This document shows positions 20,298-47,665 of a stretch of 64,000 bases of DNA, one piece after another; positions within the stretch are counted from its first letter, which is position 1; each line of letters opens with the position of its first letter. This stretch comes from an uncultured delta proteobacterium. Lineage in GTDB: Bacteria; Myxococcota_A; UBA9160; SMWR01. Both the position numbers and the translations under genes were made by a program. Under the pieces are notes generated by a model, which was not told where the DNA came from, ran no database searches, and saw only the letters and a program-made list of their open reading frames with translations. The DNA lies in NCBI GenBank assembly GCA_963832165.1, contig CAWHTE010000004.1:1-64000 (forward strand). Reading direction: 5' to 3'.

Positions 20298-20984
20298 TCA
20301 CGACGCCTTCGCCGGCTTGCACAGCGAAGCGATCGGGAACGACAGCGCCGCGCCCTTGCCCGCGGCGAGCGTCGGACGCCCGTCGGGATCGGGCCCGAAC
20401 AGCAGATCGAAGCCCTCGGCCTCGCCCGCGTCGAGGTTGACCAATGCGTGCGGCGCGAGCGGCATCGGCACCTCGAAGCGGAGCGTGGTCTCGCCCGTGG
20501 TGGCGTTGTACACGGTGAGATTGTGGAGCTTCGGCTGGTCGCCCCACTGCAGTACGAAGCGCGCGTGACGGCCCGCAGTCGTCTGGAGGATGCCGATCGC
20601 GCTGCCCTGGATCGGGAGCCGCAGCCCCGCCTTGCCGATCTGCGCGGCCGACGCCTCGTCGATCGATCCATCGATCGTCGAGACGAAGCTGCCCGGGCTG
20701 CGCAGCAGATCGCCCACGTAGAGCAGCGATTCGTCGGTGACCGCGCTGCAATCCTGCGCGCTCGCCGCGCGCGACGCGACGCCTTCTACGCCACGCCCGC
20801 TCGGGGCCCAGGCCTCGCCCCACTGATTCTCTTCGCGGTAGGTGACGTAGTCCGCGAATCCGGAGAGCGCGCCCTCGCCGGCGGCCATCCCCATGTCCTT
20901 CGCGAACTTGCCCCCGCTCTCACAGCCCGAAGCGATCGCGAGCGCGCCGATCGCGAGCCACGTGCCGTGCCGAATCCGAGTCAT
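20298..20984 (-). CDS. Hypothetical lipoprotein, last gene of the ydbH...ynbE operon
   Basis: Lipobox 'LAIASGC'; starts 4 nt after the upstream stop. Confidence 0.7.
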   Translation of the reverse strand: MTRIRHGTWLAIGALAIASGCESGGKFAKDMGMAAGEGALSGFADYVTYREENQWGEAWAPSGRGVEGVASRAASAQDCSAVTDESLLYVGDLLRSPGSFVSTIDGSIDEASAAQIGKAGLRLPIQGSAIGILQTTAGRHARFVLQWGDQPKLHNLTVYNATTGETTLRFEVPMPLAPHALVNLDAGEAEGFDLLFGPDPDGRPTLAAGKGAALSFPIASLCKPAKAS

Positions 20985-20988
20985 GCGT

Positions 20989-21525
20989 TCACCTCTTCGC
21001 GTTGTCGGGTTGATCGTGCACGACGACTTCGGTTGCGTCGGTCACCCGGATCCACGGTCCGTCCGGCGTCTGGACCCATTCACCGGGATCGGCCTCGTCG
21101 ATCCGATTCGCGCCCGCTGCCTTCTCGAGCTCCGCGATCGGCGCGCCGGTCTCCTTCGCGAGGTCCAGATACTCCGTGTGCCGGCGAGCGTTCAGGCGAT
21201 TCACGAGCGCGCGATCGATCGGATGCGGGTTCTGCGCGCGCAGGCCCAGGTAGCCGTTCGCCTGCTCGCCGACCGCGCCGCGCTGCTTGGCGGCGCGCAC
21301 GAGCTCGTCGTCGGCGGGCGCGGTGCTGCGCGAGGTCACGGGCGGGTTCTCCTCGGCCTGGATCATCTCGTCGACTTCGCGATCGACGCGCACGCGGACC
21401 TCGTGATAGAGGTCGATCTTGATCTCGATCGGCTTCTCGGTCTGGAGCGTCACGGTCGGCGAGGCGCAGGCGGACCCCCAGGCGATCGCGATCCCGGTCA
21501 CGAGACGCAGGCGCGCGCGCGTCAT
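20989..21525 (-). CDS. YnbE-like lipoprotein fused to YdbL (DUF1318) domain
   Basis: 'C..PTVTLQTEKPIEIKIDLYHEVRVRVDREVDEMI' (YnbE-like) followed by 'AAKQRGAVGEQANGYLG...NARR..EY..LA...GEWVQTPDGPW' (YdbL-like). Confidence 0.8.
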   Translation of the reverse strand: MTRARLRLVTGIAIAWGSACASPTVTLQTEKPIEIKIDLYHEVRVRVDREVDEMIQAEENPPVTSRSTAPADDELVRAAKQRGAVGEQANGYLGLRAQNPHPIDRALVNRLNARRHTEYLDLAKETGAPIAELEKAAGANRIDEADPGEWVQTPDGPWIRVTDATEVVVHDQPDNAKR

Positions 21526-21530
21526 GCCGC

Positions 21531-23372
21531 TCAGGTCCCCGCCTCATCCGGCGTCTTGGGAATCTCGTCGACGAAGATCACACCGGTGTCGTCGGATCCC
21601 TTCGCCTCGGCGGGCGGCGCGCCCTTGCGCAGCCACGTCACGCTGTAGTCGTACTTGTAGACATTGAGCGGCAGCGTGATTTCGATCTCCTTGCCGTCGA
21701 TCGGCTCGGTGATCGGGAGCGAGAGATCCTGGGAGCGCCGCCCATCGAAGAACGGGTATTCGACGTGTATTGCGAGCGCTCGGACGCCCTGAGCCTTCAG
21801 CGTCTCCGTATCCCCGACCAGCTGCACGGTGTTGCGCTTGTAGGGCGCGTACAGGTCGATCATGTTGATGTCGGTCTTGGTCCAGTCGGTCTCGTGCAGA
21901 CCGCCGCCCTTGAAGCTCCAGCGCGTGCGGTACTCGTACTCGAGCCACTTCGTGCGGTCGTCGTCGCCATTCCAGCCGTACACCATCCGGAAGTCGCGGC
22001 TCTCCTTGTTGAACGTGTTCCGATCGAGCACCACCTCGCGCATGGTCTGTGCGCCGTTCTGATGGGTCTTCCGCAGCGTCACCGTCACGGAGTTCACGTA
22101 CTTCTCGAACTCGGGAAGGATGGCGCCGTCGATGCCGACGTGGACCTCGCGCTGCTGGAACGCGGGGTCCGAGAGATTCACGGTGCGGAAGCGGTTCTTG
22201 TCGTCCTTGTAGCGCGTGTAGAGATCGCCGATGTTCGCGACCATCGTGGTGTTGCGGTCGATCGGGACCTGGTTGTTCATGTGGAAGACCGTGGTCCCCG
22301 ACTTCTTGAGCTCCTTCTTCTCGTACTGGAACGAGACCCCGACGAAGCTGCTCGAGGCCCGCGACAGCCCGCCCGTTCCGGCGCCTTGCGCGAAGTCGGC
22401 CGCCGCGCCCGCCTGCGGACTGCCGCCGGCGATCGCACCCAGCAGGCCGGAGATCATGCCCATGCCCTGGTCGGCTCCCTGCGGCTGCTTCTCGGGCTCG
22501 ACCTTCTTGAACATCACGTCGAGCAGCTTCGTGTTCACCTTCTCGAGCAGCGCCTCCATGTTCGGATGCGCGCCGCGCGTCACGAGCTTGATCGCCTGCG
22601 ACTTGTGCAGCTCCTGGAAACCCTTCTCGATGTCAGCCGAGATGAATTTCGCGACCGTGACGCCGCCGCCCATCGTCTCGTTCTTCTCGACCTCCGTCCA
22701 GTCGACGGTCAGCGTCGCGTCGTAGGCATCCGTGAGCCCGGTGAACGTCATGTCGTACACGATCGAGATGTCGGGCGTGGCCATCTGGAAGCTCTCGAGC
22801 AGGAGCTTCGACTGCTCGGGCGTCACGTCGAACGAGAAGGCGACCTCGTTGCCCTCGAACACCGGCGCGTTGCCCATGCCGAGCAGCTGGGTCTCCTTCT
22901 TCTCCTTGCCGCCCTTCATGCGCAAGATCGACGACACCAGCACGTAGCGCCCGCTCTTGAAGATCACGGGCCCGCGCAGCACCACCTCTTCCGCGTCCTT
23001 CTGGTCGCGCGTGGCGACGAGGCGCCGCAGCGCGCGCTCCGCGCGTCGCACCAGCTCCTCGGGCGTCTCGTAGGTGGCCATCAGCGTCACGATGCCGCCG
23101 CCGTCGGCGCTCGTGATGCCCTTGCTGTCGCCCTCCGCGGCCGGGCGGTTGATCACGTAACGCAGGAACGAGAAGACCGGCGCGCCGCTCGCATCGCTCG
23201 CGAGCCGCGCCGTCTGCGGGATGTAGTACCAGTGCTTCGGGTCCGTCGCGGACGGGAAGCACCACATGCCCTCCACGCGCGCGCCCTGGTCGATCAGGAT
23301 CTGCTGGGCTCGCGCGGGGCTGCCGAGCCCGAGCACGAGCAGGAGCGCCGCGATCGCCACGCGCCGGTTCAT
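21531..23372 (-). CDS. Secreted hypothetical protein, paralogue family A copy 1
   Basis: Start MNRRVAIAALLL (ATG 23372), signal peptide; motifs WYYIP..FSFLRY, GNAPVFEG, ATPDIS, FRTVNLSDPAF, YGWNGDDDR. Confidence 0.85.
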   Translation of the reverse strand: MNRRVAIAALLLVLGLGSPARAQQILIDQGARVEGMWCFPSATDPKHWYYIPQTARLASDASGAPVFSFLRYVINRPAAEGDSKGITSADGGGIVTLMATYETPEELVRRAERALRRLVATRDQKDAEEVVLRGPVIFKSGRYVLVSSILRMKGGKEKKETQLLGMGNAPVFEGNEVAFSFDVTPEQSKLLLESFQMATPDISIVYDMTFTGLTDAYDATLTVDWTEVEKNETMGGGVTVAKFISADIEKGFQELHKSQAIKLVTRGAHPNMEALLEKVNTKLLDVMFKKVEPEKQPQGADQGMGMISGLLGAIAGGSPQAGAAADFAQGAGTGGLSRASSSFVGVSFQYEKKELKKSGTTVFHMNNQVPIDRNTTMVANIGDLYTRYKDDKNRFRTVNLSDPAFQQREVHVGIDGAILPEFEKYVNSVTVTLRKTHQNGAQTMREVVLDRNTFNKESRDFRMVYGWNGDDDRTKWLEYEYRTRWSFKGGGLHETDWTKTDINMIDLYAPYKRNTVQLVGDTETLKAQGVRALAIHVEYPFFDGRRSQDLSLPITEPIDGKEIEITLPLNVYKYDYSVTWLRKGAPPAEAKGSDDTGVIFVDEIPKTPDEAGT

Positions 23373-25210
23373 CGCGCTCCCTCCGCGAGCGGGACCGCCG
23401 CGGACGTCGCTGCGGGCGCGGCCGGCAGCTCGTCGACGAACAGCACGAACGTCTTGTCGGTGCCCTGGGCCGTGCGATTGCCACCGGTCCCGATCCACGT
23501 GACGTCCCAGTGATACTCCGTCGCGTCGAGCGGCATGGTCAGCTCGATCTTCTTGTCGTCGATCGGTTGGTCCGCGCGCAGCGTGATCTTGTCGCTCTTG
23601 CGCCCTTCGAAGAACGGGTAGTCCACCTTCACCACCACAGCGCGCACGCCCTCCGCCTTGAGCGATTCGCTGTCGCCGTAGATCCGCAGCACGCGGCGCT
23701 TGTACGGCGCGTAGAGGTCGATCATGTTCGCCTCCGCGGTCGTCCACTCGGTCTCGTGCTTGCCGCCCCCCTTGAAGCTCCAGCGCGTCCGGTACTCGTA
23801 CTGGAGCCACTTCGTCCGATCGTCGTCGCCCGACCAGCCGTAGATCATCCGGAAGTCGTTCTTGGTCTTCTTGAACGTCTCGCGATCCACGACGACCTCC
23901 TGCACGGTCATCTTGCCGTCCTGGTGCTGCTTGCGGAGCACGGTCGTCACGCTGTTGATGTAGGCGTCGAACTCGGGGAGGATCGCGCCGTCGATGCCGA
24001 CGTGGATCTCGCGCTGCTCGAACGCGGGGTCGGCGAGATTCACGGTGCGGAACATCCGCGTCTCGCTGCCGTACTTGCTCCAGAGATCGGCGACGTTGAA
24101 GCCGATCGTGGTCACGCGCGTCACGGGCGACTGACCCGTCATGCTGAGCGTGGTCGTGCCCGTGCGCCGGATGTTCTTCGATTTGTAGCCCGCGCTGATC
24201 CCGACGAACGGCAGCGGCTTGCGCCCGTACGCGTCGGTCTTCCCCTGGCGCCAGTTCGATCCCGCCTGCGCGAGGCGCTGCTCCGGCGAGCCCTGCGTGT
24301 ATGTCTCGCCGGTGGTCTGGTCGATCGCGACCGGCTCGAACATCAGCTCCATGAGCTTGTTGGTGACCTTGTCGAGCAGCGCTTCCATGTTCGCATTCGC
24401 GCCGCGCGTCTTCAGCTCGATGGCCTTGTTCTGGATCAGCTCGTCGCGCATCTGCCCGAAGCCGCCGCCGGCGCCGACGTAGAAGAGCGGGATCTCGGCC
24501 TTCACGCCGAACGCCTCGTGCTTCTGCACGTCGTCCCACTTGATGACGAGGTCGGCGTCGAACGAGTCGGTCAGGCCCTCGAGCGTCATCTCGAAGATCA
24601 GCGAGATGTCGGGCGTCGCCATCTTCAGGCTCTCGAGCAGCAGTGTGGCGCGGTCCGGCGGCAGGTCGAACGAGAGCGCGATCTGACTGCCCTCGAGCAC
24701 CGGCGCGTTGCCGGTCGCGAGCAGCCGCGGCTCCTCGCTGCCGCCGGGATTGATGATCGCCGAGACCAGCGCGTACTTGCCCTCCTTGAAGATCACCGGG
24801 CCGCGCAGCTTCACGTCCTCGGGCTTCGCGCCCTTCTCGCCCTTTTCGGCCGCGATCCGCTGCAGCGCGCGCTCCGCGCGGCGGACCAGGTCCTCGGGCG
24901 TGTCGTAGGTGACGAGGAAGTGCACCACGCCGCCGCCCTCGGCCTGCGTGATGCCCTTGCTCGAATCGGCCTCGCTCGAGCTGGCCTTGTTGATCACGTA
25001 GCGGATGAACGAGATCGCAGGGAGGCCGGAGTCGCCGATCACGAGCCGCGCAGAGCTCGGCACGTAGTAGTAGTGGAGCGGGTTCACCGCCGAAGGGAAC
25101 ACCCAGAGACCCTCGACGCGCGCGCCCTGGTCGAGCAGGATCTGCTGGGCGCCGGCCCCGAGCGGCCAGGCGAGCATCAGCAGCGCGGCAAGCGCTCTCG
25201 CGATCGACAT
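23369..25210 (-). CDS. Secreted hypothetical protein, family A copy 2 (closest to copy 1)
   Basis: Signal peptide then QQILLDQGARVEG; same motifs as copy 1; ATGA overlap. Confidence 0.88.
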   Translation of the reverse strand: MSIARALAALLMLAWPLGAGAQQILLDQGARVEGLWVFPSAVNPLHYYYVPSSARLVIGDSGLPAISFIRYVINKASSSEADSSKGITQAEGGGVVHFLVTYDTPEDLVRRAERALQRIAAEKGEKGAKPEDVKLRGPVIFKEGKYALVSAIINPGGSEEPRLLATGNAPVLEGSQIALSFDLPPDRATLLLESLKMATPDISLIFEMTLEGLTDSFDADLVIKWDDVQKHEAFGVKAEIPLFYVGAGGGFGQMRDELIQNKAIELKTRGANANMEALLDKVTNKLMELMFEPVAIDQTTGETYTQGSPEQRLAQAGSNWRQGKTDAYGRKPLPFVGISAGYKSKNIRRTGTTTLSMTGQSPVTRVTTIGFNVADLWSKYGSETRMFRTVNLADPAFEQREIHVGIDGAILPEFDAYINSVTTVLRKQHQDGKMTVQEVVVDRETFKKTKNDFRMIYGWSGDDDRTKWLQYEYRTRWSFKGGGKHETEWTTAEANMIDLYAPYKRRVLRIYGDSESLKAEGVRAVVVKVDYPFFEGRKSDKITLRADQPIDDKKIELTMPLDATEYHWDVTWIGTGGNRTAQGTDKTFVLFVDELPAAPAATSAAVPLAEGAR

Positions 25211-25242
25211 CGAACCCCCCGTCTCGGATTGCCGCGTCCGCG

Positions 25243-27369
25243 TCAGTCGGCGTTCGCGAACAGCTCCTCGAATTGGTCGAGGATCTTCTCCGCGCCCACC
25301 TGCCCGAGCTTCTTGGCCGCCTGTTTCGCCTGCTCGCGCGGATCTCCCGCCACGAGAATCTCCTCGGGCAGCGTCGCGTACACGTAACGCTCACCGATTC
25401 CGGTGCGCCAGCCGTCTCTGCATTTCCCGGCGATGCCCGATCGGCAGGGCACCACCATGCGCCCTTCGGTCTTGTGATGGACGATCATCCGGTAGGCGAA
25501 CCCGCGCGTGCCGCGGTCCACGAAGATCGGCTGCGACTTGATCGGCTGACCGTCGCGCGGCGTCAGCGCGATGATGGTGAACGCCTCCTTGCCGAACAGC
25601 GGGTAGTGGAACTCGAGCGAGACGCGCGCGATGTCGCTCGCCGCCATCTGCTCGACGTCGCCTTCCGCCTCGATCACCCAGCGCTCCACGGGCGGCGCCA
25701 GCGTCACCCCCTCCCAGTTGCCGCGGATCCAGCGCGCGTTGGCCGGGAAGATGTTGCCCCCCTTGAGGCTCCACTGCGTCTGGTACTGGTAGAGCTCTGA
25801 GTTCTTGTCCTCGCCGCGCGCATAGCTGATCGATGCCGCGATGCCCTTGCTCTTCAGGTACTCCGCATCGATCGTGACGCTGTCGTTGAACTCGGGCATG
25901 TCGGAGCGCGGCTTCTTCACGTTGATCGTCACGTAGTTGACGAGCTGGTCGAACAGCTCCTTGGCCTCGAGGTCGAGGATGAAGCGGATGTCGCGGTGCT
26001 GGAAGAACGGATCGTTCAGGTTCACCATCTGCACGCAGTTCTTGTTGTCCTTCACGCCGTTGTACCAGCTCGCGAGATTGCCGACGACGGTGAAGCGCTT
26101 GCGCACGGCCAGGCCGGCGTCGAGGTAGATCGTCTTGCGCTTCGAGGCGAAGAGCGACTGCCACTTGGTGCGATTGTAGGTGACCTGGCGGTAGTCCCCT
26201 TCCTCCATCTCCTTCTTCAGGTCCTTCCCCTTCTCGTCGCCGTCCTCGTCCTCGTCGTCGGGAAGCGCGATGTCCTCGCCCTCGTCGCTGCTCGTGAGGC
26301 TCTCGGTGAAGAAGTCGAGCATCGCGTCGAGCACGGCGCCGACGTACTTGTTGTCCGGCTGAAGCCCCTCGAACTTCATGTAGATGACCTGGTTCTCGAC
26401 CATGCTGTTGAACATGTTCTGCGTGTGCTGCTCGGTGTAGGTCTCCTCCTCGTCCCAGCAGATGAGCCACCAGTCGTCGCAGGATTCGGTCGACGTCGCG
26501 GACTGGTGCTCGCTCTCGTACATCGTCTGCATCTTGCTCCAGTCGAAGATGATCTCGCCGCGCGCGGCGGGCAGCATCACGTCGTAGGCGAAGTCGAGCT
26601 CCACCGAGAGGTCCGCGATCGACTTCGCCTTCTCGACCGTCGACAGGAAGAGCTGGGCGCCGTTCGCGGTCATGTTGGCGGCCGCGGCGACCTTGCCTCC
26701 CGGCAGGAGCGGCGCGTGCCCGGACTGCACGAGCGACTTCGTCATCGTGTTGTCGCTGAGCGTGCCCGAGATGATCTTGAACGAGTTCTTCTCGTCGCCC
26801 TCGACGAGATCGGCGGCGCCCGCCAGGACACCCTGACCATCCGTCGCCGCGGTGACCTTGGTTTTGAGGTCGCGCTCCTGGTCCGGCGTGAGGCCCCACT
26901 CCATCAGCATGTGCATGAGACCGCCCTGCGTTCCGCCGGCGTCCGCTTTGGCGTCGGTCGTGTACCGGACGAACAGGAACTCGGGCGTGCCGTCGGGGCG
27001 CATCCCGAGGCGGATCTGGGGCGGCAGGTAGTAGTACTTGATCTGCCCGCCGGCCCGGGGCCGCACGGCCGAGGCGGCGAGCTCTTTCAGGAGCGCACTC
27101 GGACCGCGCGTGATGACGGAGTTGCCGGGCCGGAACGGCTGCGGGCGGGAATGCTGGATCGGTGCCGGCGTGCCTTCGTTGGCCTCCCCGCGCGCTGCAA
27201 TCTTGCTCTGGTACTCGCCGTACAGGACCACGTTGACGCCATCTTTGAGCGTGACGGTGATCTTCTTGTCCCCGTCCATGACGGCGTGTGCGGGTGCGGC
27301 CCAGAGCGCCGCGGCGGCGATCGCGAGAGCGACGAGCGCTCGGCAGGTCGGGTTCGATCTCGTTCGCAT
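25243..27369 (-). CDS. Secreted hypothetical protein, family A copy 3
   Basis: Start MRTRSNPTC (ATG 27369, AGGAG SD); YYYLPP..FLFVRY, GHAPLLPG, VNLNDPFF, YQYQTQWSLKGG. Confidence 0.85.
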   Translation of the reverse strand: MRTRSNPTCRALVALAIAAAALWAAPAHAVMDGDKKITVTLKDGVNVVLYGEYQSKIAARGEANEGTPAPIQHSRPQPFRPGNSVITRGPSALLKELAASAVRPRAGGQIKYYYLPPQIRLGMRPDGTPEFLFVRYTTDAKADAGGTQGGLMHMLMEWGLTPDQERDLKTKVTAATDGQGVLAGAADLVEGDEKNSFKIISGTLSDNTMTKSLVQSGHAPLLPGGKVAAAANMTANGAQLFLSTVEKAKSIADLSVELDFAYDVMLPAARGEIIFDWSKMQTMYESEHQSATSTESCDDWWLICWDEEETYTEQHTQNMFNSMVENQVIYMKFEGLQPDNKYVGAVLDAMLDFFTESLTSSDEGEDIALPDDEDEDGDEKGKDLKKEMEEGDYRQVTYNRTKWQSLFASKRKTIYLDAGLAVRKRFTVVGNLASWYNGVKDNKNCVQMVNLNDPFFQHRDIRFILDLEAKELFDQLVNYVTINVKKPRSDMPEFNDSVTIDAEYLKSKGIAASISYARGEDKNSELYQYQTQWSLKGGNIFPANARWIRGNWEGVTLAPPVERWVIEAEGDVEQMAASDIARVSLEFHYPLFGKEAFTIIALTPRDGQPIKSQPIFVDRGTRGFAYRMIVHHKTEGRMVVPCRSGIAGKCRDGWRTGIGERYVYATLPEEILVAGDPREQAKQAAKKLGQVGAEKILDQFEELFANAD

Positions 27370-27386
27370 CGTCGGCGTTCTCCTTG

Positions 27387-29198
27387 TCAGGGTTGGGTCG
27401 GCGCGTCGCCGTCGGGCTTCGGCTCCGGCGGGAGCACCAGCAGATAGTCGCCCTCGAGGCCCGCCGGCATTCCGCGCTGCTGGCCCTTCCTCGAGTACCA
27501 CGTCACGCGCCAGCCGATCGGGCGCTCGCGATCGTGATACACGGACACGGTCTTGCGCAGGTCGCTGTCGCTCGCGCGCAGCAGCGCCTTGCGCTGGAGC
27601 TGCGGCTTGCCGACGAGCGGGGTCGCAAACTCCACGACGGCCGTCATGATTCCGGCTTCCCTGAGCAGCGCGGGATCGGAGTCGATGTCGACGATGCGGC
27701 GTTCGAAGGGCGGCACCAGCGACACGGCCGGGTCCTCGGTCGGGATCCACTTGTCTTCTTCGGCTGGCACGCCGACGGTCGGCCGGTCGCGCACGCTCCA
27801 TCGCACCTGGTACTCGTAGCCGCGCCAGTCCTTCTCGGAGGCGCCGAGCCGCGGATACTCGATCTGCTTGACGGTGCGGCCGTTCTTGACGTCGTCGTGC
27901 GTGAACACCACCGACTCGGTGAAGGCCGGCTGGTCGGCGTAGGTCTTGCGGAAGTTGACCGACACGAAGTTGATCGTGTCCTGGAACGAGTCGAGGTAGT
28001 TGCCGTCGACCTGGAAGTGGACCTGGCGCTTCTCGAACGCGGTGTCGGCCAGGTTCACGACGCGGAAATAGCGCTGATCGTTCTTGAAGTCGGCGTAGAT
28101 CCCGCCGAGATTGCCCGACGAGTCGACCGGCACGCGGATCGTCGAGGACAGCGAGAGGTTCAGCGAGAACGAGTTGCGCGTGATGTCCTTGCGCTTCTTG
28201 AGCACGTACTGGTCGTCGGTCACGTACTCCTGGTTGCCGGTGCCCGCGAAGAACTTGGCGAACCCGCCGCGCTCCTGACGCCGCGCGATCTGCTCGCCCT
28301 CCACCGCCACTTCCTTCTCGGGAGCCACCGCCCAGCCGGCTTCCGCGTCGAACATCAAGTCGGTGAGCTTGGTGGTCACGATGTCGACGATCCCCTGCAT
28401 CGCTCCGGCGTCGATGCCGAGCCCTTTCGAGCGGTCGACGACCTCGATCGTGATGCCGCCGCTGCGGGTCAGCTCGTCGGTGATCTGGCGCAGCTCGCGC
28501 TTCTTGTAGCCGCGCTGCTTGTTCTGGAAGCGGCTGAAGTGCTCGTACACGACGTCCATGTTGGCGGTGACCTTGGCGTTGTAGGCCTTCACCGCGGCTT
28601 CGTAGTAGCCGGTGATCGCGACCGACACGTCCGAGGTCGGCGAGTTGAGCGTGTCCCACAAGAGCGTGGCGCCTTCCTGGTTCAGCATCGCCGCCACCAC
28701 CGCCTTCGAGCCCGGCGTGAGAGGCGCGCGGCCCGAGGTCACCAGCTTGCGCGTGAAGCCGCCTTCGCCGCTGTCCGCGAGCGTCGCCGACACCACGCGG
28801 AACGAGCCGAGCCCCTGGTTGCCGTCCTCGGTCGCCTGCTGCAGCGGCACCGGCCCGCGCAGCTTCGCTCCGCCGTGCTCCTTGTCGAGCTTGGCCTGGA
28901 GCGCGGCCACCTGCTTGGGAGGCAGCGTGAACTCGACGAGCGCGTGGAAGAGGCCGCCGCTCGCCTTGCCCGCCTGGCCGACGTACTTGAGGCAGAGGAA
29001 CTCGAGCGTCTCGCCGTCTTCCTTGGTGGCCAGGCGCGGAAACTGCGGCAGGTAGTAGTAGGACGAGTCGTCGTTGGCGTCCTGGAGCAGCTGCACGCCG
29101 TCGATGATCAGCCCGCCCTCGTCGTACTTCACGAGCGCCGCCGCGGGCGCGGCGAGTGCGGCCGCCAGCAGCGCGACGATCCCCCCGGCACACTTCAT
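27387..29198 (-). CDS. Secreted hypothetical protein, family A copy 4
   Basis: Signal peptide; YYYLPQFPRLA..FLCLKY, GRAPLTPG, FRVVNLADTAF, YEYQVRWS. Confidence 0.88.
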   Translation of the reverse strand: MKCAGGIVALLAAALAAPAAALVKYDEGGLIIDGVQLLQDANDDSSYYYLPQFPRLATKEDGETLEFLCLKYVGQAGKASGGLFHALVEFTLPPKQVAALQAKLDKEHGGAKLRGPVPLQQATEDGNQGLGSFRVVSATLADSGEGGFTRKLVTSGRAPLTPGSKAVVAAMLNQEGATLLWDTLNSPTSDVSVAITGYYEAAVKAYNAKVTANMDVVYEHFSRFQNKQRGYKKRELRQITDELTRSGGITIEVVDRSKGLGIDAGAMQGIVDIVTTKLTDLMFDAEAGWAVAPEKEVAVEGEQIARRQERGGFAKFFAGTGNQEYVTDDQYVLKKRKDITRNSFSLNLSLSSTIRVPVDSSGNLGGIYADFKNDQRYFRVVNLADTAFEKRQVHFQVDGNYLDSFQDTINFVSVNFRKTYADQPAFTESVVFTHDDVKNGRTVKQIEYPRLGASEKDWRGYEYQVRWSVRDRPTVGVPAEEDKWIPTEDPAVSLVPPFERRIVDIDSDPALLREAGIMTAVVEFATPLVGKPQLQRKALLRASDSDLRKTVSVYHDRERPIGWRVTWYSRKGQQRGMPAGLEGDYLLVLPPEPKPDGDAPTQP

Positions 29199-40273: not shown

Positions 40274-40277
40274 CTCG

Positions 40278-42629
40278 CTATTCGGTGTCCGGCAGCTCGT
40301 CCACGAACAGGATCGATTCGTTGCTCTTGGTGCGCGGCGCGGAGACGGTCTTGTTGCCGCGCAGGCGCCACGAGACGTCGTAGAAGTAGTCGTACTGCCC
40401 ATCGGGCAGCATGAACGGAATGCGCGTGGAGAGCTCGCCGCGCGACGTGTTGAGTGTCACCTGCTCGACCTGCTCCTTGCCCGCCAGGTCGTAGTACAGG
40501 CGCACGGTCGTCGCGCGGACGTCCTTCACGTTCTCGGGGTCGGCCTCGAGGCTCACGCTGCGGATCTGGTAGGGCGGCACTGCGCGGATTCCGCTCGCAT
40601 TGGTGCGCTGCCACGGCTCCTCGACGTCTTGTCCGCCGAAGAAGCTCCAGACCGCGCGCCACTCGTACTCGAGCCACTCGTTGCGGTCGTCGTCGCCCTT
40701 CCAGCCGTAGAGCATGCGGAAGCGGTTGCCCTCCGCGTTGAAGTTCTTCCGGTCGATCCGGACCTCGTCCACCGTGATCTCGCCGTTCTGGTGCGTCTTG
40801 CGCATCTGCACGCTGACGAAGTTGACGAACTTGCCGAAGTCGTCGCCGTTCATGCCGTCGACGTACACGGCGATCTCGCGCTGCTTGTAGAGCGGATCGT
40901 CGAGGTTGGCCTTGCGGAAGTACTGCGGGTCCTCGAGATATTGCTGGAGGTCGCCGATGTTCTCGTCGAAACGGACGGGTAGCTCGCCGTTCGAGTATTT
41001 CTCGAGGTTGTAGCGGAACTCGCCCGAGCGCTTGACCTTCTTGAGCTCGTAGCTCGCGAACCCGACGATCGCGGGCCGCTCTTCGGTTCCCGCGGTCGCC
41101 ACCTCGGAGTTGCCCGCGGCCTTGCGGCCGGCATCGGCCGCGTTCTTGGCCTTCGTGGCCTCCTCGCGCGCGCCCTTCAGCTGGGCTTCGAGGTCCTTGA
41201 TTTCCTTTTCCTTCGCAGCGATCTCGGGGTTCGCGTTCGGCGCGGTGGGCTTCTCCGCGGGCTTCTCCGGGGTGGGCTTGACCGCAGTGGGTTTCTCCGC
41301 GGGCTTTTCCGCGGGCTTCACCGGGGTGGGCTTCTCCGCGGGTTTCTCCGCAGGCTTCTCTGCAGGCTTTTCCGCGGGCTTCTCTGCGGGTTTCTCCGCC
41401 GTCTCCGCAGGTTTTTCCGCGGGCTTCTCCGGCGCGGGTTTTTTCACTACCGCTGCGCGCGACGCGGTCTGCTTCGACTTGAGCTCAACGAGTTCCTTCT
41501 CCGCCTTGCGCAGCTTCTCTTCGAGCTCGGTCACACGCGCATTCGCCTTGTCCGACTCCTTCTCCAGTCGCGCGACCTCGGCCTTGTCCACCTCCGCGCG
41601 TTTCCCCTTCTCGCGCGCGGCGAGATTCTCCTTGCGGATCGCCTCCGCCTTCTGCTGGAGGGATTCGTTTCCGCCCGCGGCACCGTCCTTCTTCGCGTCG
41701 GCGAGCGGATCGGGGATGCCCTTGTTCTTGTCGAAGAGCAGATTCATGAACAGGTCATGGGTCTGACCGACCAGCCTGTTGAACTGCTCGTCGCCGCCGC
41801 CCCCGATGATCTGGATGTCGATCACCTTCTTCTCGATCAGCTCATCCATCGCCGAGCTGAGCTTGAACTCGAACTGGGGCGTGGCGACCGCGGCCTTGAT
41901 CGCCTCGTGTTCGTAGACCTGGTCCAGGTTCGCGACGATCGTGGCCTTCGCGGGCGACCAGTATCCGGGCAGCTTCATGTCGAACGAGAAGCTGATGTCG
42001 GGCGTCGCCATCTGGAACGACTGCCACAGGATCTGCGCACCCATCTTCGTGAGCTGGAGCGACACCGCCGCCTTGCCGCCTTCGAGCACCGGGGCGTTTC
42101 CGAGACCCACGACGCGCTTCACGAGCTCGCCATTGTCCTGCTGGAACGCGGAGACGAGCGCGAACGTGCCGCTGCGGTAGATCGCGGGGCCGACGATCTT
42201 CGCGCCCGGGGTCTGCGCGTCGAGCGCGTGCTGAGCGCGCTCGATCTGCGCCTGTGGGACGTCGAGCGAGACCACCGCGTGCAGGATCCCGCCGCCGATC
42301 CCCTCCTTCGGTGCGTCGTCCGATCCAGTTCCCTCGACGTTCTGCACGTAGCGCAGGAACGAGAACTGCGGGCGGCCCTGCGGATCGCGTCCGAGCCGCG
42401 GCGTCATCGGGGCATAGAGATACGACTTGGGATCGCCGACCACCGGGAAGAGCATCAGGCCAGCGGCCTTCACGGGCTGGTCGAGCACGATCCGGCCGCC
42501 GCCTTCGCCGGACGGAGCAGCGGCGGTCGCATTCGGAGCGCGCGGACGTACCGACTCGGCCAGCGCCGGGCTCGCTGCGGCGGACGCGATCGCGATCGCC
42601 AACCAGAACGCGAGCACGGCGGACCTCAC
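40278..42629 (-). CDS. Secreted hypothetical protein, family A copy 7, with coiled-coil/PAEK-repeat insertion
   Basis: GTG 42629; signal peptide; YLYAP..FSFLRY, GNAPVLEG, ATPDIS, FRKANLDDPLY, YGWKGDDDR. Confidence 0.85.
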   Translation of the reverse strand: MRSAVLAFWLAIAIASAAASPALAESVRPRAPNATAAAPSGEGGGRIVLDQPVKAAGLMLFPVVGDPKSYLYAPMTPRLGRDPQGRPQFSFLRYVQNVEGTGSDDAPKEGIGGGILHAVVSLDVPQAQIERAQHALDAQTPGAKIVGPAIYRSGTFALVSAFQQDNGELVKRVVGLGNAPVLEGGKAAVSLQLTKMGAQILWQSFQMATPDISFSFDMKLPGYWSPAKATIVANLDQVYEHEAIKAAVATPQFEFKLSSAMDELIEKKVIDIQIIGGGGDEQFNRLVGQTHDLFMNLLFDKNKGIPDPLADAKKDGAAGGNESLQQKAEAIRKENLAAREKGKRAEVDKAEVARLEKESDKANARVTELEEKLRKAEKELVELKSKQTASRAAVVKKPAPEKPAEKPAETAEKPAEKPAEKPAEKPAEKPAEKPTPVKPAEKPAEKPTAVKPTPEKPAEKPTAPNANPEIAAKEKEIKDLEAQLKGAREEATKAKNAADAGRKAAGNSEVATAGTEERPAIVGFASYELKKVKRSGEFRYNLEKYSNGELPVRFDENIGDLQQYLEDPQYFRKANLDDPLYKQREIAVYVDGMNGDDFGKFVNFVSVQMRKTHQNGEITVDEVRIDRKNFNAEGNRFRMLYGWKGDDDRNEWLEYEWRAVWSFFGGQDVEEPWQRTNASGIRAVPPYQIRSVSLEADPENVKDVRATTVRLYYDLAGKEQVEQVTLNTSRGELSTRIPFMLPDGQYDYFYDVSWRLRGNKTVSAPRTKSNESILFVDELPDTE
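41248..41436 (-). repeat. 12-bp coding tandem repeat (PAEK)n
   Basis: Repeated ggg(c/t)tt(c/t)tc(c/t)gc units with synonymous variation. Confidence 0.85.
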
Positions 42630-43750
42630 GGGGTCACCGGGCAGTTGCCGTCGGCGTCCTCGGCCATCGGGCAGGAGGCCGTCACGGATTCCACCTGACA
42701 TCCATTCGGCCATTGGCTCTCGGGCTTTCCACTGCCGACCGCTTTGCAGCACGCGACGATCCTCTCGACCTTGTCGTGATAGGTCTTGTTCCATTCGCCT
42801 TCGCTCGTCAGGCCGTGCCCATCGGGCATCCAATGGGTCACTTCGAAGCTCTGCCCCATGGTGCTGGCTCTCGCGTGGACCTTGCCGGTCGCGAGTCGGA
42901 TCCAGGCGTCGCAGGTGCGGAAGTCGGGCCCGCCGATCGAGTTGGCGCGGTCGACGCTCGCGCGCGCGGCCGCGATGTGGTGGCACATCGTGCAGGTGTC
43001 GTCGCCGTCGATCTCGACGAACTTGGGCTCGGGCCACGTGTCGAACGGCGGCTCGCTGTTCTTGTAGGGGCCGTTGTCACCCGCGAGATCGCTTCCAATC
43101 GTGTTGTTCATCCAGCGGCTGTTCATCCACGGTCCGCTGTCGTGGCACTTGATGCACATGACATCGCGGGTGTCGGACGGCTTCATCCAGAAGTCGTGAC
43201 CGCTCACCGTGGCCGGACCCGGCACGATCGTGCCATCGAGATGCTGCGATTTCCCATCCTCGGTCTGAAACCAGCACGTCTCGCCATTGCCGCGGTTGTG
43301 CACGATCATCGCGATGTCGTCGAAGCCGGTGACGAGGTTCCCCTCCAGATCGAGCAGAGGAGCCGGCCCGAGGCCCCAGCGCGTCTTGTGCCGACACAAG
43401 AGCGCCGCCTTGACCTGCGGGTTCGACGGCGTCGGCACGACCTGGATGTAGCTGTGCCCGTAGCACTTGTTGTCGAGCCACGTCCCGTAGTCGCAGGCGT
43501 CGGGAATCTCCTTGGCACAGCCCGCGTCCTTGCACAGGTCCAGGTCCTGGACGACGCCCTCGACCGTCGAGACGAGCCGTTTGCCCTTCGTGCAGTCGAA
43601 CGAGCCCTTCAGGTCGTCTGCATCGAGGTGCAGGCGTTCGAAGCAGCTCTTGGCGTACTCCCAGACGTCGGGGTCGCTGTCCGCCGCAGCCGGCCCGGAC
43701 CCGGCGAGGAGTAGAACGACGGCGGCGGTCGCGATGCGTCCCACCTTCAC
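42626..43750 (-). CDS. Secreted Cys-rich protein with two CxxCH motifs (family B copy 2)
   Basis: GTG 43750 overlaps the upstream stop; signal peptide; CIKCH and CTMCH. Confidence 0.8.
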   Translation of the reverse strand: MKVGRIATAAVVLLLAGSGPAAADSDPDVWEYAKSCFERLHLDADDLKGSFDCTKGKRLVSTVEGVVQDLDLCKDAGCAKEIPDACDYGTWLDNKCYGHSYIQVVPTPSNPQVKAALLCRHKTRWGLGPAPLLDLEGNLVTGFDDIAMIVHNRGNGETCWFQTEDGKSQHLDGTIVPGPATVSGHDFWMKPSDTRDVMCIKCHDSGPWMNSRWMNNTIGSDLAGDNGPYKNSEPPFDTWPEPKFVEIDGDDTCTMCHHIAAARASVDRANSIGGPDFRTCDAWIRLATGKVHARASTMGQSFEVTHWMPDGHGLTSEGEWNKTYHDKVERIVACCKAVGSGKPESQWPNGCQVESVTASCPMAEDADGNCPVTP

Positions 43751-44499
43751 TCCTCTGTCAGATCCGCCTTGTCCGGCGTCGAACCCGAGAGACAGTGCAT
43801 GAAGTGCGCCCACCCGTCTGCCGCGTAGAAGTTTCCGCACCGGATCTCGCAGTCGAACAGCCCGCAGTAGCTTTCCTCACCGCTCTCTTCGCGAACGCCC
43901 ACGAGGTGCGCGCTCTCGTGAATGAGCGTGCGGATCCGCTGCTCGGGCGAGCTCTTCTCCTTGGCGAAGAATCCCGGACAGAGCTGGATCGGCGGCGACG
44001 TACCCAGGACGTAGGCGGCGCGTCCGGTGCAGTTCGTATCCTCGGCGGACGCGCACGCTGTGGGCAGGTCCGCGTTCGAGACACGGTTGCGGATCTTCTC
44101 CGAGATCTCGACGACCTGCTCGAAGTCGAGGTCGTCGTCGATCAGCTTCGCGGCCAGGCTCTCCGCCTCGCGCTGATCGTTCGTTCCCGTCGACGGATGC
44201 AGCCCGCGCGCGCGATCGGTTGCGGTCTGGGTCCGGATCGCCGCGGCCTTGCGCGCGGTCTCGATCTGCTCCTCCTGGGCGGGCGTGCACCCCTCTGCCG
44301 CCACGCGGCTCTGTACGGTCGGATTCGGCTTCTTGACGATCTTGCTCGGATCCGGCTTGGCCGCTGAGCGCGTCCGGGCTTTTTCCGACTTCTGCTTGAT
44401 CACGGGTTTCGCGGCGGGCTCTTCGGCAAGCAGCGCGGACGGGCATGCGAGCACCATCCACATCACGACGGATCCAGCGATCAACCGGTTTCGCTTCAT
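43747..44499 (-). CDS. Secreted M35/aspzincin-like zinc metallopeptidase
   Basis: Signal peptide; 'C...AAYV....IQLCPGFF', HExxH in 'TLIHESAHL', 'ADGWAHF'. Confidence 0.75.
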   Translation of the reverse strand: MKRNRLIAGSVVMWMVLACPSALLAEEPAAKPVIKQKSEKARTRSAAKPDPSKIVKKPNPTVQSRVAAEGCTPAQEEQIETARKAAAIRTQTATDRARGLHPSTGTNDQREAESLAAKLIDDDLDFEQVVEISEKIRNRVSNADLPTACASAEDTNCTGRAAYVLGTSPPIQLCPGFFAKEKSSPEQRIRTLIHESAHLVGVREESGEESYCGLFDCEIRCGNFYAADGWAHFMHCLSGSTPDKADLTEE

Positions 44500-44552
44500 C
44501 TCGACGTCGACCTCCCTGCTCGAGACCGCCGCATCTTATCGCGTCGGGGGGA

Positions 44553-46409
44553 TTAACTCCGCGGCACGAAGAAGAAATCGCCGCTTTCGTGGCCGGCGAA
44601 CTTGATCGGTGCGTACTGCGGCAGCTGCTCGAACTGCTGCGCCTCGGCGGCCCAGGCCACGCGCGCCGAGATCTCCTGGAACAGCCGCTGCCCTTCGATC
44701 GCCTCCTGGGCTTCCCCGAGCACGGTGAGCAGCGCCTTGGCGAAGATCGAGTGATCGCCGCCGCCCGAGTCGAGCACGGGAGCGATGCCACCCGAGGTCA
44801 GCGCGGTGCGCGACTTCTTGCCGGCCATCCCGCGCATCCAGGCCATGCGCGCCTCCTTCGTCATGCCGGCTTCGAGGCGCGCGAGTGACGAGCGCGTGAG
44901 GGCGCCCGAATAGCACGAGTCGGCCACGACGATGATGTGTTTCGCCGACATCGCGTTGAGCAGATCGGTCAGATCCACGTTCGAGATCCAGTTGGCCGTG
45001 CTCGCGGGCTCGGCGTCGGTCGGGAGCCAGTGGCCGCGGCTGTTCGCGCGGTCGAGCTCGCCGTGACCGGCGTAGAAGATCAGCAGGTTGTCCTTCTCGG
45101 TGAGCTTGCCGCGCAGCGTGTTGAGCGCGGACAGGATGTCGTAGCGGGTCGCGTCGAGCAGCGTCGTGACCTCGAAGCCGAACTTCTTCTCGAGCAGCTT
45201 GCCGAGCTCGCGCGCGTCGGCGCGCGCGGTGGCGAGGTCGTGCACCTCGGGATTCTTGTAGCTGTCGTTGCCGATCACGAGCGCGTAGTAGCGGCCGAAG
45301 TCGATCGCGGGCTCGGACGGGCGCACGGGCTCCCCGGCGGCCTCGCGCGTTCCGGGCTCGAGCACGAACACGCGATCCGCACGGCCGCCCTGGCGATCCG
45401 TGGCCACGATCGTGATCTTGGTCCCCTGCGCTCCCACGATCACCTCCGAGCGGAACATTCCCTTGTCGGTGACGGGAAGTGACGCGTCGTTGAGCGTGAG
45501 GCTCATGAGGCCGGCCGGCGCCTCGACGTGGCCGACCAACACGCGCCGGGTATCCGCGACGATCGTCTGCACGAGAGTCACGCCGCGCGTGATCGGCACC
45601 TTGGGATCGAGGATCTGGATCGTCGGAGCCGGCAGCTTCACACCGGGCGGCGGCTTCGCGGCGATCTGCACGCGCAGCGCGTCCGCTTCGTTGCGCAGCC
45701 GATCGACCTCGACCTCGAGCTGCGAGACGCGCACCGCGCCATCCGCGCTCGCGTTCGAGCGGTCGCGGCGCAGCTCGTCGAGCTCCTGTCGCAGGCGCTC
45801 GACCTCCTGCTCGCGGCGGCGGAGATCCTGCTTGAGCTGGTCGAGCTCGCCGCTCGACGGCGCCGAGGGCTGGAAGTTCACCTCGAGATCGGCGAGCCCC
45901 GACGCGCGCCGATACCACGCGAGCGCCTGGGCCGGGTCGCGCGGCACGCCGCGGCCGAGCTCGTAGAGCTGGCCGAGATTGATCTGCGCGGGAGCCCAGC
46001 CCTGGTCGGCCGCGCGCCGATACCACGTGGCCGCGGCCTCGTAGTCGGACGCGAGGCCCATGCCCTTCTCGTAGATCTCGCCGACGTAGGTCTGCGCCTG
46101 CGCGTCGCCCGCTTTGGCGGGCTCGAGCCACACGGCGAGTGCCGTCGCGTAGCTCGCGCGGTCGTAGGCCGTGTACTCCCCGCCGCGGATCGCGCAGTCG
46201 CTGCCCGTGGTCTTGATCGCGCGCCGCGCCGTGAGGTAGGTCATCTGCTGCCCGAGCCGGCGCACCTTGCCCGGCAGCAGGCAGTCCACCACGAGCAGCT
46301 CGCCGGATTCCTGCGCCGTGCTCTCTCCGGGGCGCGGCGCGACGTCGCTCGCGCAGGCGAGCGCGAGCCCGCCTGCGCAGAGCCATGCCTGGGTCCGGAA
46401 CGCGCTCAT
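44553..46409 (-). CDS. Lipoprotein with SEL1 repeats, coiled coil and C-terminal caspase-like peptidase C14
   Basis: Lipobox 'LALAC'; SEL1 'AQTYVGEIYEKGMG..WYRRAADQG'; 'YYALVIGNDSY', FYAGHG, ADSCYSG. Confidence 0.9.
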   Translation of the reverse strand: MSAFRTQAWLCAGGLALACASDVAPRPGESTAQESGELLVVDCLLPGKVRRLGQQMTYLTARRAIKTTGSDCAIRGGEYTAYDRASYATALAVWLEPAKAGDAQAQTYVGEIYEKGMGLASDYEAAATWYRRAADQGWAPAQINLGQLYELGRGVPRDPAQALAWYRRASGLADLEVNFQPSAPSSGELDQLKQDLRRREQEVERLRQELDELRRDRSNASADGAVRVSQLEVEVDRLRNEADALRVQIAAKPPPGVKLPAPTIQILDPKVPITRGVTLVQTIVADTRRVLVGHVEAPAGLMSLTLNDASLPVTDKGMFRSEVIVGAQGTKITIVATDRQGGRADRVFVLEPGTREAAGEPVRPSEPAIDFGRYYALVIGNDSYKNPEVHDLATARADARELGKLLEKKFGFEVTTLLDATRYDILSALNTLRGKLTEKDNLLIFYAGHGELDRANSRGHWLPTDAEPASTANWISNVDLTDLLNAMSAKHIIVVADSCYSGALTRSSLARLEAGMTKEARMAWMRGMAGKKSRTALTSGGIAPVLDSGGGDHSIFAKALLTVLGEAQEAIEGQRLFQEISARVAWAAEAQQFEQLPQYAPIKFAGHESGDFFFVPRS

Positions 46410-46453
46410 GGATGGCGGTCCATCGACCCCGCCATCCTATCACCCCGCGCCGA

Positions 46454-47665
46454 TCAGAACTCGATCCGCCCACCCGCTGTGAAGCGGTGATGCTCGACGT
46501 CGCTCAGGGCGAGCACCGTGTCGTAGTCGATGAAGGCGGAGATGCCGTGGGCGAACCCCGCCGATACGCCGGCGCCGAGGCGCCCATAGTCGCGGTCCGG
46601 GGAGTCGGTGCGCGAGATCAACACGTCGTTGACCGGGTTGGAGTTCAAGAACAGGCGCGCGTCGATGTTGCGCGCGTCGTTCTCGAACTCGTGCTCCCAG
46701 GTGGCGCGCAGGTGCGGGACGATCACCCCGAATCCGGTCGAGATCGCATACGAGGCCTCGGCCCCGAGGCTCGACACGAGCGACGTGATGTCCTGGTCGT
46801 CGTATTTGAGCGGGAACGCCTGCACCTGCGATTCGGAATAGCCGTCGATCCAGGTCTGGCGGTAGTCGATTCCCGCGATCGGTCCGACTCCGAGAGCGTC
46901 GAACGCGAACTCGTAGCCGCCGCTCAGGCTGAAGCCGACCTGATTCGCATCCGTGTCGCCCTTGGCCGAGGCGAGGAAGACCGCCTCGTCGAGCAGCACG
47001 ATCGGGCGATCGTACTCGTAGTCGAGATAGGTGTAGGTCACGATTCCATCGACGTGGAACGGACCCGAGAAGAAGCTCGCGTAGAGCGACGGGGTGTACG
47101 AGTCGGATTCGACCTCGCCGCCGCCGGTGTTGAAGCCGGATCCGTTCGCGGCCGCGATCTCGTCGAACTCGCTGTTCTGGCGGTTCCAGCCGAAGCCGAA
47201 GCCGGCCACGAACGAATCGCTCAGGCGATAGTCCACGCCGGCCTGCACGCCGCCGCCCCAGACCTCATACTCATCCGCCTCGCCGCGCGCGTCGACCTCT
47301 CCGAAGCCGCCCGAGCCGTTCAGGAAGGCACCGAGTCGCGACGCGCCATCCTCCTCACGCGCCTGCTCGAGCCGGTCGGCCTCGGCCGACACCTGGGTGT
47401 CGGTCGTCTGGGTCGCCGTGCTGCTGGCCGCGCTCTGCTCGCGCGGAGACACCTGCAATGCGTCCTGGGTCTGCTGCGCGCCGACGCCGAAGGCGACGTC
47501 GCAGCTCTGCGCCGCGAGATTCGGATCGCTGGCCGTACCACACAGACCCGCCATCACGGCGGTCGTGCGCGCGACGAGATCCGCTTGATTCGTCGCAGCC
47601 GCGGGCGCACACCACAACACCAACGCGAAACCAAAGAAGAGGCGGAACACGATGCGATCGGACAT
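46454..47665 (-). CDS. Autotransporter-type outer-membrane beta-barrel with a very short passenger
   Basis: Signal peptide; 'GVQAGVDYRL', 'IDGYSES', 'PHLRATWEHEFEN'; C-terminal Phe (GGRIEF). Confidence 0.85.
   Translation of the reverse strand: MSDRIVFRLFFGFALVLWCAPAAATNQADLVARTTAVMAGLCGTASDPNLAAQSCDVAFGVGAQQTQDALQVSPREQSAASSTATQTTDTQVSAEADRLEQAREEDGASRLGAFLNGSGGFGEVDARGEADEYEVWGGGVQAGVDYRLSDSFVAGFGFGWNRQNSEFDEIAAANGSGFNTGGGEVESDSYTPSLYASFFSGPFHVDGIVTYTYLDYEYDRPIVLLDEAVFLASAKGDTDANQVGFSLSGGYEFAFDALGVGPIAGIDYRQTWIDGYSESQVQAFPLKYDDQDITSLVSSLGAEASYAISTGFGVIVPHLRATWEHEFENDARNIDARLFLNSNPVNDVLISRTDSPDRDYGRLGAGVSAGFAHGISAFIDYDTVLALSDVEHHRFTAGGRIEF

Follow-up and report, generated by a model that had tools for sequence, protein, structure and literature searches.

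A six-gene cassette of exported proteins conserved across phyla, adjoined by orthocaspases and a YdbH-type bridge operon in an uncultured delta proteobacterium

Do the genes of a long block that encodes only envelope proteins, two caspases among them, act as one system? The question is raised by positions 20298-47665 of a 64,000-nucleotide stretch of DNA, hereafter the window, from an uncultured delta proteobacterium (GTDB lineage Myxococcota_A, UBA9160, SMWR01; assembly GCA_963832165.1, contig CAWHTE010000004.1, positions 1 to 64,000) with a 5.5-Mb genome in 11 contigs. An earlier note on this DNA had described the locus as a single 27-kb system built around a secreted family of paralogues (family A). 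According to our analysis, one system can be spoken of in a narrow clade and not elsewhere: the 27-kb unit is what one clade has built around a six-gene cassette that is much older. At a G+C content of ~69%, raw lists of open reading frames (ORFs) from the window were noisy, and genes were therefore called by GC3 frame plot and translations; they are numbered g1 to g19. Related cassette loci carry L-numbers and the genomes compared carry G-numbers (window's genome: G000).

The cassette consists, in this order and on one strand, of a gene of the g9 type, a short gene of the g8/7 type, and genes of the g6, g3/4, g5 and g15 types. Among 34 related loci from metagenome-assembled genomes (MAGs), BLASTP identified the g3 to g6 and g15 types in all 34, g7 in 27, g8 in 26 and g9 in 25, and most loci lacking g9, g8 or g7 were on truncated contigs. 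Order and strand were the same in about 25 of the 34 loci, which represent at least eight phyla; the order was kept in MAGs labelled Myxococcota, Acidobacteriota, Gemmatimonadota, Eisenbacteria, Bacteroidota, Armatimonadota and Gallionellaceae. The labels of the 34 loci further included Deltaproteobacteria and Kiritimatiellae, among others, the Kiritimatiellae-labelled copy (L014) being fragmented and without a match to g7, g8 or g9. The g15 type, encoded in the window by a gene of a separate operon (40278..42629, minus strand), closes the series of paralogues in the cassettes of other phyla. A quick IQ-TREE analysis, from which rows covering <60% of the query had been dropped, included 71 full-length proteins of the window and 19 other loci. 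It gave four clades (starred in the tree) that correspond to the four full-length types, and within each clade every locus is represented by a single protein. The duplication that separates g3 from g4 was found only in the window, L001 and L004.

The fixed order and the one-to-one orthology thus indicate that the four full-length types are ancient, non-interchangeable and co-inherited, as expected of the subunits of one assembly. Judged from sequence, the six cassette products most likely make up one hetero-oligomer of the periplasm or envelope, each as a distinct subunit; Pfam finds no outer membrane or secretion component within the cassette, and a periplasmic location is the default assumption. 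In a sample of 401 genomes from the phylum of the window, strong full-length matches were present in four, the window's own genome included; in the window's family, only one of 11 further genomes had them. The cassette is therefore accessory and patchily distributed, and this patchiness points to an accessory role of the conflict type and away from a core one. A literature search retrieved no description of the cassette, a weak negative because there is no name under which the family could be searched for. Six exported subunits that co-evolve as a fixed set would imply an undescribed kind of complex in the Gram-negative envelope.

Five members of family A align over their full length, viz. g3 (21531..23372) and its clade-specific duplicate g4 (23369..25210), both of 613 amino acids (aa), g5 (25243..27369, ~708 aa, start approximate), g6 (27387..29198, 603 aa) and g15 (783 aa), of which all but g15 lie in one operon on the minus strand. 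Amino acid sequence identity to g3 is 54% for g4 and 21, 26 and 35% for g5, g6 and g15. Their signal peptides, including that of g3, are cut directly before conserved mature N-termini and lack a lipobox, and the same applies to members from Bacteroidota. No Pfam family was matched at E ≤ 0.01 by the family-A genes or by 22 cassette proteins from other phyla, and the family-A profile gave a best E of 0.45 against PDB sequences. A search with g4 retrieved 211 proteins among 8,000 candidates scored, and none of the best 120 of these 211 had a Pfam domain or an informative name. With a profile of the N-domain, 1,335 cluster representatives were obtained from 1.84 billion proteins at E ≤ 1e-3, of which 333 also passed E ≤ 1e-30, clusters being counted at 50% identity; the nearest Atlas cluster has 2,122 members and is unnamed. 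Longer fused forms were represented by six proteins, without informative domains except for a TPR in one. All N-domain matches in the 5.5-Mb genome fall within the locus. Family A is thus a new, unannotated exported family, and its ~1,300 clusters, none with an annotated member, come from many phyla of bacteria living in soils and sediments. Three tandem distant N-domain homologues of 745-909 aa and a cut fourth were observed in genome G397 (L041:8228-15517, minus strand). They start at the conserved motif, are 7 nt apart and have neither a Pfam match nor a signal peptide; accordingly, a leaderless branch of the superfamily exists. They adjoin a 2,235-aa protein that also matches the N-domain and likewise has no Pfam match.

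The sixth paralogue is the short one (29195..30471, minus strand), which in the window is spread over two frames: g8 and g7 correspond to the N- and C-parts of a protein that is a single ORF of ~400 aa in every relative examined. Its profile matched the family-A N-domain with a probability of 98.5% (E 3e-15). The product of g9 (30468..32537, minus strand), which opens the cassette, is an exported protein of 689 aa with a serine-, threonine- and proline-rich, partly coiled-coil N-terminal part and a conserved C-terminal part of ~440 aa. It contains a YY-x-P-like motif; its membership in family A was not supported by hhalign (probability 6%). Of the seven paralogues counted in the earlier note, six are thus supported, five of full length and the short one recognized by its profile.

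In the AlphaFold2 model of g4 (pLDDT 79.7, pTM 0.52), a full-length subunit is modelled as three immunoglobulin (Ig)-like β-sandwiches, the first of which bears a long inserted β-ribbon arm. Residues 398-596 are modelled as two fibronectin type III (FnIII)/Ig-like sandwiches (best VIA Z 7.6, many FnIII domains at Z ~6). The strands of the arm (202-224 and 352-372, ~22 residues) are modelled as carrying a helix-rich head of low confidence, and the site of this head is where g15 has its insert of a coiled coil followed by a long (AEKP)n repeat and g5 its acidic insert. The N-domain folded alone had a pLDDT of 75.7 and no Foldseek match at E ≤ 1e-3; its best VIA match was an Ig-like SgrA domain (Z 8.9, 107 residues aligned, root-mean-square deviation 3.2), in which N-domain residues 27-160 are joined to strand 366-370. 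With the whole g4 model, only strings of Ig-like domains were found among the Foldseek matches listed (TM ≤ 0.16). Matches to complement C3/C4/C5, A2M and a TIE adhesin belong to this set and were discarded as reflecting such strings. A thioester motif of the CGEQ type was not visible by eye in g4.

In the window, the cassette is physically linked to genes of an intermembrane lipid bridge. The product of g10 (32506..34848, minus strand) is a YdbH-like protein of the AsmA family (PF11739, E 4.7e-51, 175 bits) with a hydrophobic N-terminus as transmembrane anchor, and is the sole YdbH of the genome. The 178-aa lipoprotein encoded by g2 (20989..21525, minus strand) matched YdbL (DUF1318, PF07027, E 1.3e-23, 83.7 bits) and, just below the cut-off of 25.8 bits, YnbE (PF13617, 24.9 bits); a YnbE-like lipoprotein and YdbL are fused here in a single product. 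In E. coli, YnbE and YdbL are encoded by separate genes, their products bind each other, and YdbH-YnbE-YdbL form an intermembrane phospholipid bridge (PMC11126948; bioRxiv 10.64898/2026.03.16.712125). The locus shares with the E. coli bridge a YdbH-like and a YdbL plus YnbE-like protein encoded in one operon and in the same order, but differs in the seven cassette ORFs that separate ydbH from ynbE/ydbL, in the YnbE-YdbL fusion and in an extra lipoprotein, g1 (20298..20984, minus strand; 228 aa, lipobox IASGC, no Pfam match), the last gene of the operon.

The cassette occupied the same position between ydbH and ynbE/ydbL in the window, L001, L003 and L004, and the L002 contig ends before ydbH. 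YdbH was encoded directly upstream of the cassette in three loci, and YnbE/YdbL directly downstream in five and g1 in four, all of them within the closest relatives, L001-L004 and L009; g1 homologues following the YnbE/YdbL gene were confined to L001-L004. Seven cassette-free genomes of the same family were examined, and in five of the six with enough flank ydbL lies ~350-580 nt after ydbH. In this clade, the ydbH-ynbE-ydbL operon therefore has the cassette in its interior.

The two operons to the right of g10 contain the proteases. Both g11 (34899..37109, plus strand) and g18 (44553..46409, minus strand) matched Peptidase_C14 (PF00656) above the cut-off (E 1.3e-25 and 3.5e-23, 90.9 and 82.9 bits), and they are the only C14 genes of the genome. 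They retain SGHG and DSCHAG (g11) and AGHG and DSCYSG (g18), which we take to be the motifs of the catalytic His-Cys dyad. By their sequences, g11 and g18 are predicted to be exported orthocaspases. Bacterial orthocaspases belong to Peptidase C14 (PMC6426788); g11 and g18 agree with these in the PF00656 match and in the His and Cys motifs, and differ in that they are exported, one as a lipoprotein, and fused to DUF4384 (g11) or to Sel1 repeats and a coiled coil (g18). A second DUF4384 match was obtained with g13 (37613..39067, plus strand), a lipobox protein with a P/Q/Y-rich spacer of ~130 aa; proline-rich rods such as this spacer and the (AEKP)n insert of g15 are typical of periplasm-spanning proteins. 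Between g11 and g13 lies g12 (37139..37612, plus strand), encoding a 157-aa lipoprotein without a Pfam match. The minus-strand operon further contains g17 (43747..44499), encoding an exported 250-aa HExxH protein (HESAH) that matched Aspzincin_M35 below the cut-off (28.1 versus 30 bits), and g19 (46454..47665), an autotransporter-type β-barrel of the outer membrane (PF03797, E 9.1e-59, 199.7 bits) without a recognized passenger domain in the ~110 residues that precede it.

Each right-hand operon also has one copy of a second new family, family B, represented by g14 (39083..40273, plus strand, 396 aa) and g16 (42626..43750, minus strand, 374 aa from a GTG start). The two share 41% identity (E 4e-85), which bears out the family seen by the earlier note in both operons, and are the only family-B genes in the genome. 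The family is rare, with 36 database matches, none of which had a Pfam domain. Signal peptides are present, two CxxCH motifs are invariant in all 28 aligned sequences, next to about ten further cysteines, and the nearest Atlas cluster is automatically named 'Cytochrome c domain-containing protein' (score 0.96). From these sequence features, family B is probably a new exported dihaem c-type cytochrome-like family, a reading absent from the earlier note. The best match against PDB sequences (E 0.015), to pyrroloquinoline quinone-propeller kinases over ~80 residues, was judged to be noise. In metagenomes from JGI, a g4-type family-A protein (P0003) and a family-B protein (P0143) are both assigned a longest contig of the same length, 5,209 bp. 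If this is one contig, as may be the case, it would represent a different and closer A-B linkage.

The right-hand operons recur, rearranged yet linked, in G001 from the same genus and in G003, an unplaced close relative, and these are the only genomes in which the full block was seen. Parts of it extend further. The caspase gene g11 was kept beside ydbH in G001, G313 and G004, and g12 accompanied g11 in G001, G003 and G313. In G313, which belongs to another family of the same order, g12 and a caspase-DUF4384 gene (~42-52% identity to the pair of the window) are divergent from a run of ydbH and genes of the g9, g8/7, g6, g5, g4, g3 and g15 types, and the only two C14 matches of this genome are located within ~10 kb of the cassette. 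In G004, C14 genes flank the cassette on both sides.

Proteases of other kinds adjoin the cassette in other lineages. A CHAT protein is encoded directly upstream of it in L030, and an M6 InhA-like peptidase in L005. Directly after the g15 type, ten loci carry a gene for an exported protein of ~465-495 aa ('gene 7' family), and in eight of these an HExxH motif is found near position 200. The window has no homologue of gene 7 (tblastn), and g17 was rejected as a member (profile probability 0.9%). In total, four unrelated kinds of exported protease (C14, CHAT, M6 and HExxH) are neighbours of the cassette in different lineages. The link between proteases and family A that the earlier note had proposed from the window was thus found again, with C14 here, in G313 and in G004 and with the other three kinds elsewhere. 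Since the exported proteases that adjoin the cassette differ between phyla, we infer proteolytic maturation of its products.

To account for these data, we tentatively favor a reading with two layers, to which we give somewhat less than an even chance. The first layer would be an ancient, sporadic cassette of six genes for Sec-exported, non-lipidated subunits that assemble into one periplasmic or envelope hetero-oligomer. The second would have arisen in this order-level clade, where the cassette, by an insertion, came to lie between ydbH and ynbE/ydbL and gathered two orthocaspases, DUF4384 proteins, the probable dihaem family, the HExxH protein and the outer membrane barrel. Maturation of the subunits, or the triggering of their assembly, would depend on cleavage by a cognate protease, with the disordered loops of the head as possible sites. 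Protease control of assembly is plausible; the proteolytic cascade of the earlier note is pure conjecture. Its hetero-oligomer of family-A subunits has good comparative support, in that the non-redundant paralogues, with one-to-one orthology and order across phyla, fit such an assembly. We consider it unlikely that the whole of a bolder statement is correct, namely that the cassette is an undescribed protease-matured hetero-oligomeric machine of the diderm envelope, horizontally spread over at least eight phyla and wired in this clade to the YdbH bridge, the orthocaspases and the dihaem protein. If it were, the caspases of the locus would be the first extracytoplasmic ones to control envelope assembly, possibly in a conflict or attack device, and if the protease link is real, protease-triggered assembly extends to the periplasm. 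The window contributes testable handles, i.e., the insertion into the ydbH operon, the genome's only two caspases, which are exported and adjacent, and the CxxCH family.

Several observations weigh against the two-layer reading, and some of them support the alternative that the block is not one system, its cassette, its ydbH/ynbE-ydbL genes and its caspase/family-B/barrel operons being separate units kept together by descent. Within flanks of at most 10 kb, a caspase-domain hidden Markov model (HMM) found a match in one of the 34 cassette loci (L004), and HMM or phmmer searches for family B, DUF4384, g12, g13, g17 and g19 found none in any of the 34. In 33 loci the flanks thus had no caspase, family B, DUF4384 or barrel, so these shell genes are not needed for the cassette. 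The earlier note would have given up its reading if families A and B and the caspases did not co-localize in other genomes, and by this standard a single system is not supported beyond the narrow clade; caspases and cassette do co-localize in G313, where family B is absent despite the presence of both, as it is from G049. With the full locus confined to so narrow a clade, much of the linkage may be due to common descent. Adjacency to proteases is not universal either, as the loci from Eisenbacteria have CARDB proteins instead, and the Pfam survey of flanks, with 120 candidate ORFs in 23 loci, covered 70 of these ORFs. Finally, the reading frame of the short paralogue is shifted once, by a single base, near position 29674 in this assembly. 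The shift could be a real defect, making the gene a pseudogene, or an assembly error; the reads of four runs gave no credible contig across 29674, the sources listed being soil-metagenome contigs that contain at most 0.22 of the sequence words, with no RNA among them, and the cassette copies of L014, L031 and L034, which are split into many small ORFs, suggest indel-prone assemblies. Separate units are nonetheless somewhat unlikely in our estimate, although we take them seriously: the block is rearranged among G000, G001 and G003 and yet stays together, the caspase-g12 pair is still divergent from ydbH in another family at its reduced identity, all C14 and family-B genes of the genome lie in the block, and the cassettes of other phyla have unrelated proteases as neighbours.

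Other readings concern the kind of assembly that the cassette would build. A pore formed stepwise after proteolytic activation to attack other cells, as by complement and the membrane attack complex (MAC) or two-component toxins like cholesterol-dependent cytolysins (CDCs), would agree with several related and ordered subunits, a possible activating protease in linkage, the toxin-like patchiness in the phylum (a strong cassette in four of 401 genomes) and two very long amphipathic strands (g4 202-224 and 352-372) flanking disordered segments. We nevertheless regard the pore, which the earlier note had put forward, as improbable. Family A has no match in Pfam to MACPF (PF01823), to the thiol-activated cytolysins (CDC) or to aerolysin, and no such chain was among the Foldseek and VIA matches listed for whole g4 or its N-domain, although such an absence does not decide the matter; halfway along strand 202-224 the hydrophobic register flips, as we read it, which resembles a strand belonging to two cores more than one of a membrane hairpin; and the genes give no indication of export beyond the periplasm, the cassette having no route past the outer membrane. 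Gasdermins gave no match in Pfam or PADLOC, which matched only the two caspases, and gasdermin-caspase systems are cytoplasmic, unlike the products of this locus with their export signals. Type V (FimA/Mfa) pili consist of paralogous β-sandwich subunits that are lipoproteins and are matured by gingipains, which are clan-CD cysteine proteases. A comparable fiber, in which strands are exchanged after clan-CD cleavage and the paralogues serve as anchor, stalk and tip, would be suggested by the modelled all-β, Ig-like subunits, a mature N-terminal strand conserved from its first residue and the adjacent clan-CD proteases (C14, CHAT). It is very improbable in view of the type-I signals without lipobox, also in Bacteroidota, a distribution far beyond that phylum, four equally long and equally conserved types where one major pilin with minor ones would be expected, and the lack of FimA or Mfa among the fold matches listed, which is not decisive. 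Redundant exported binding proteins or adhesins that act independently are quite improbable too: in their favor, the best fold matches are adhesin- or Ig-like (the SgrA domain at Z 8.9 and arrays of the TIE/SdrD type), against which stand strict one-to-one orthology, fixed order across phyla and translational coupling.

As an analogy only, the hetero-oligomer that we favor resembles the products of Mce operons, in which six tandem paralogues with MlaD domains form a heterohexamer. Both have six exported paralogues of ancient, distinct types in fixed order with a likely place in the envelope, and the cassette is here linked to a lipid-bridge operon; it differs by lacking MlaD (PF02470)/Mce domains and genes for a YrbE permease and an ATPase, and by its modelled Ig-like folds.

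The general features of the locus that the earlier note had listed were reproduced. We count 19 ORFs, or 18 genes when 29195-29557 and 29362-30471 are taken together as a single gene with a frameshift, in three tight operons with gaps of 0-53 nt: g10 to g1 on the minus strand (34848 to 20298), g11 to g14 on the plus strand (34899 to 40273) and g19 to g15 on the minus strand (47665 to 40278). All five 4-nt overlaps are genuine stop/start overlaps, with ATGA at 23369-72 and 29195-98 and GTGA at 30468-71, 42626-29 and 43747-50. As judged by eye from the translations, export signals are present on all products, where ~17 had been counted before: type-I signal peptides, a lipobox (g1, g2, g12, g13 and g18) or a transmembrane anchor (g10). 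Pfam matched seven of the 19 ORFs (g2, g10, g11, g13, g17, g18 and g19) and none of the other 12, in agreement with two exported caspases, YdbH/YnbE bridge genes (the YnbE piece being borderline) and an outer membrane barrel, and detected no regulator, integrase or ATPase inside the locus. NCBIfam gave nothing above its cut-offs except a generic autotransporter-barrel domain model on g19.

On the left, a LysR gene abuts the locus, accompanied by genes for AhpC and a penicillin amidase; an epimerase, a GT4 and a FemAB protein are encoded on the right. The stops of the convergent genes g14 and g15 are only 4 nt apart (40273-40278), too close for a terminator hairpin to fit in the gap. In the loci from Eisenbacteria (L016, L019, L020, L021 and L015), a helical protein of ~460 aa and a CARDB protein of ~1,150 aa take the place of the HExxH gene 7 downstream of the cassette.

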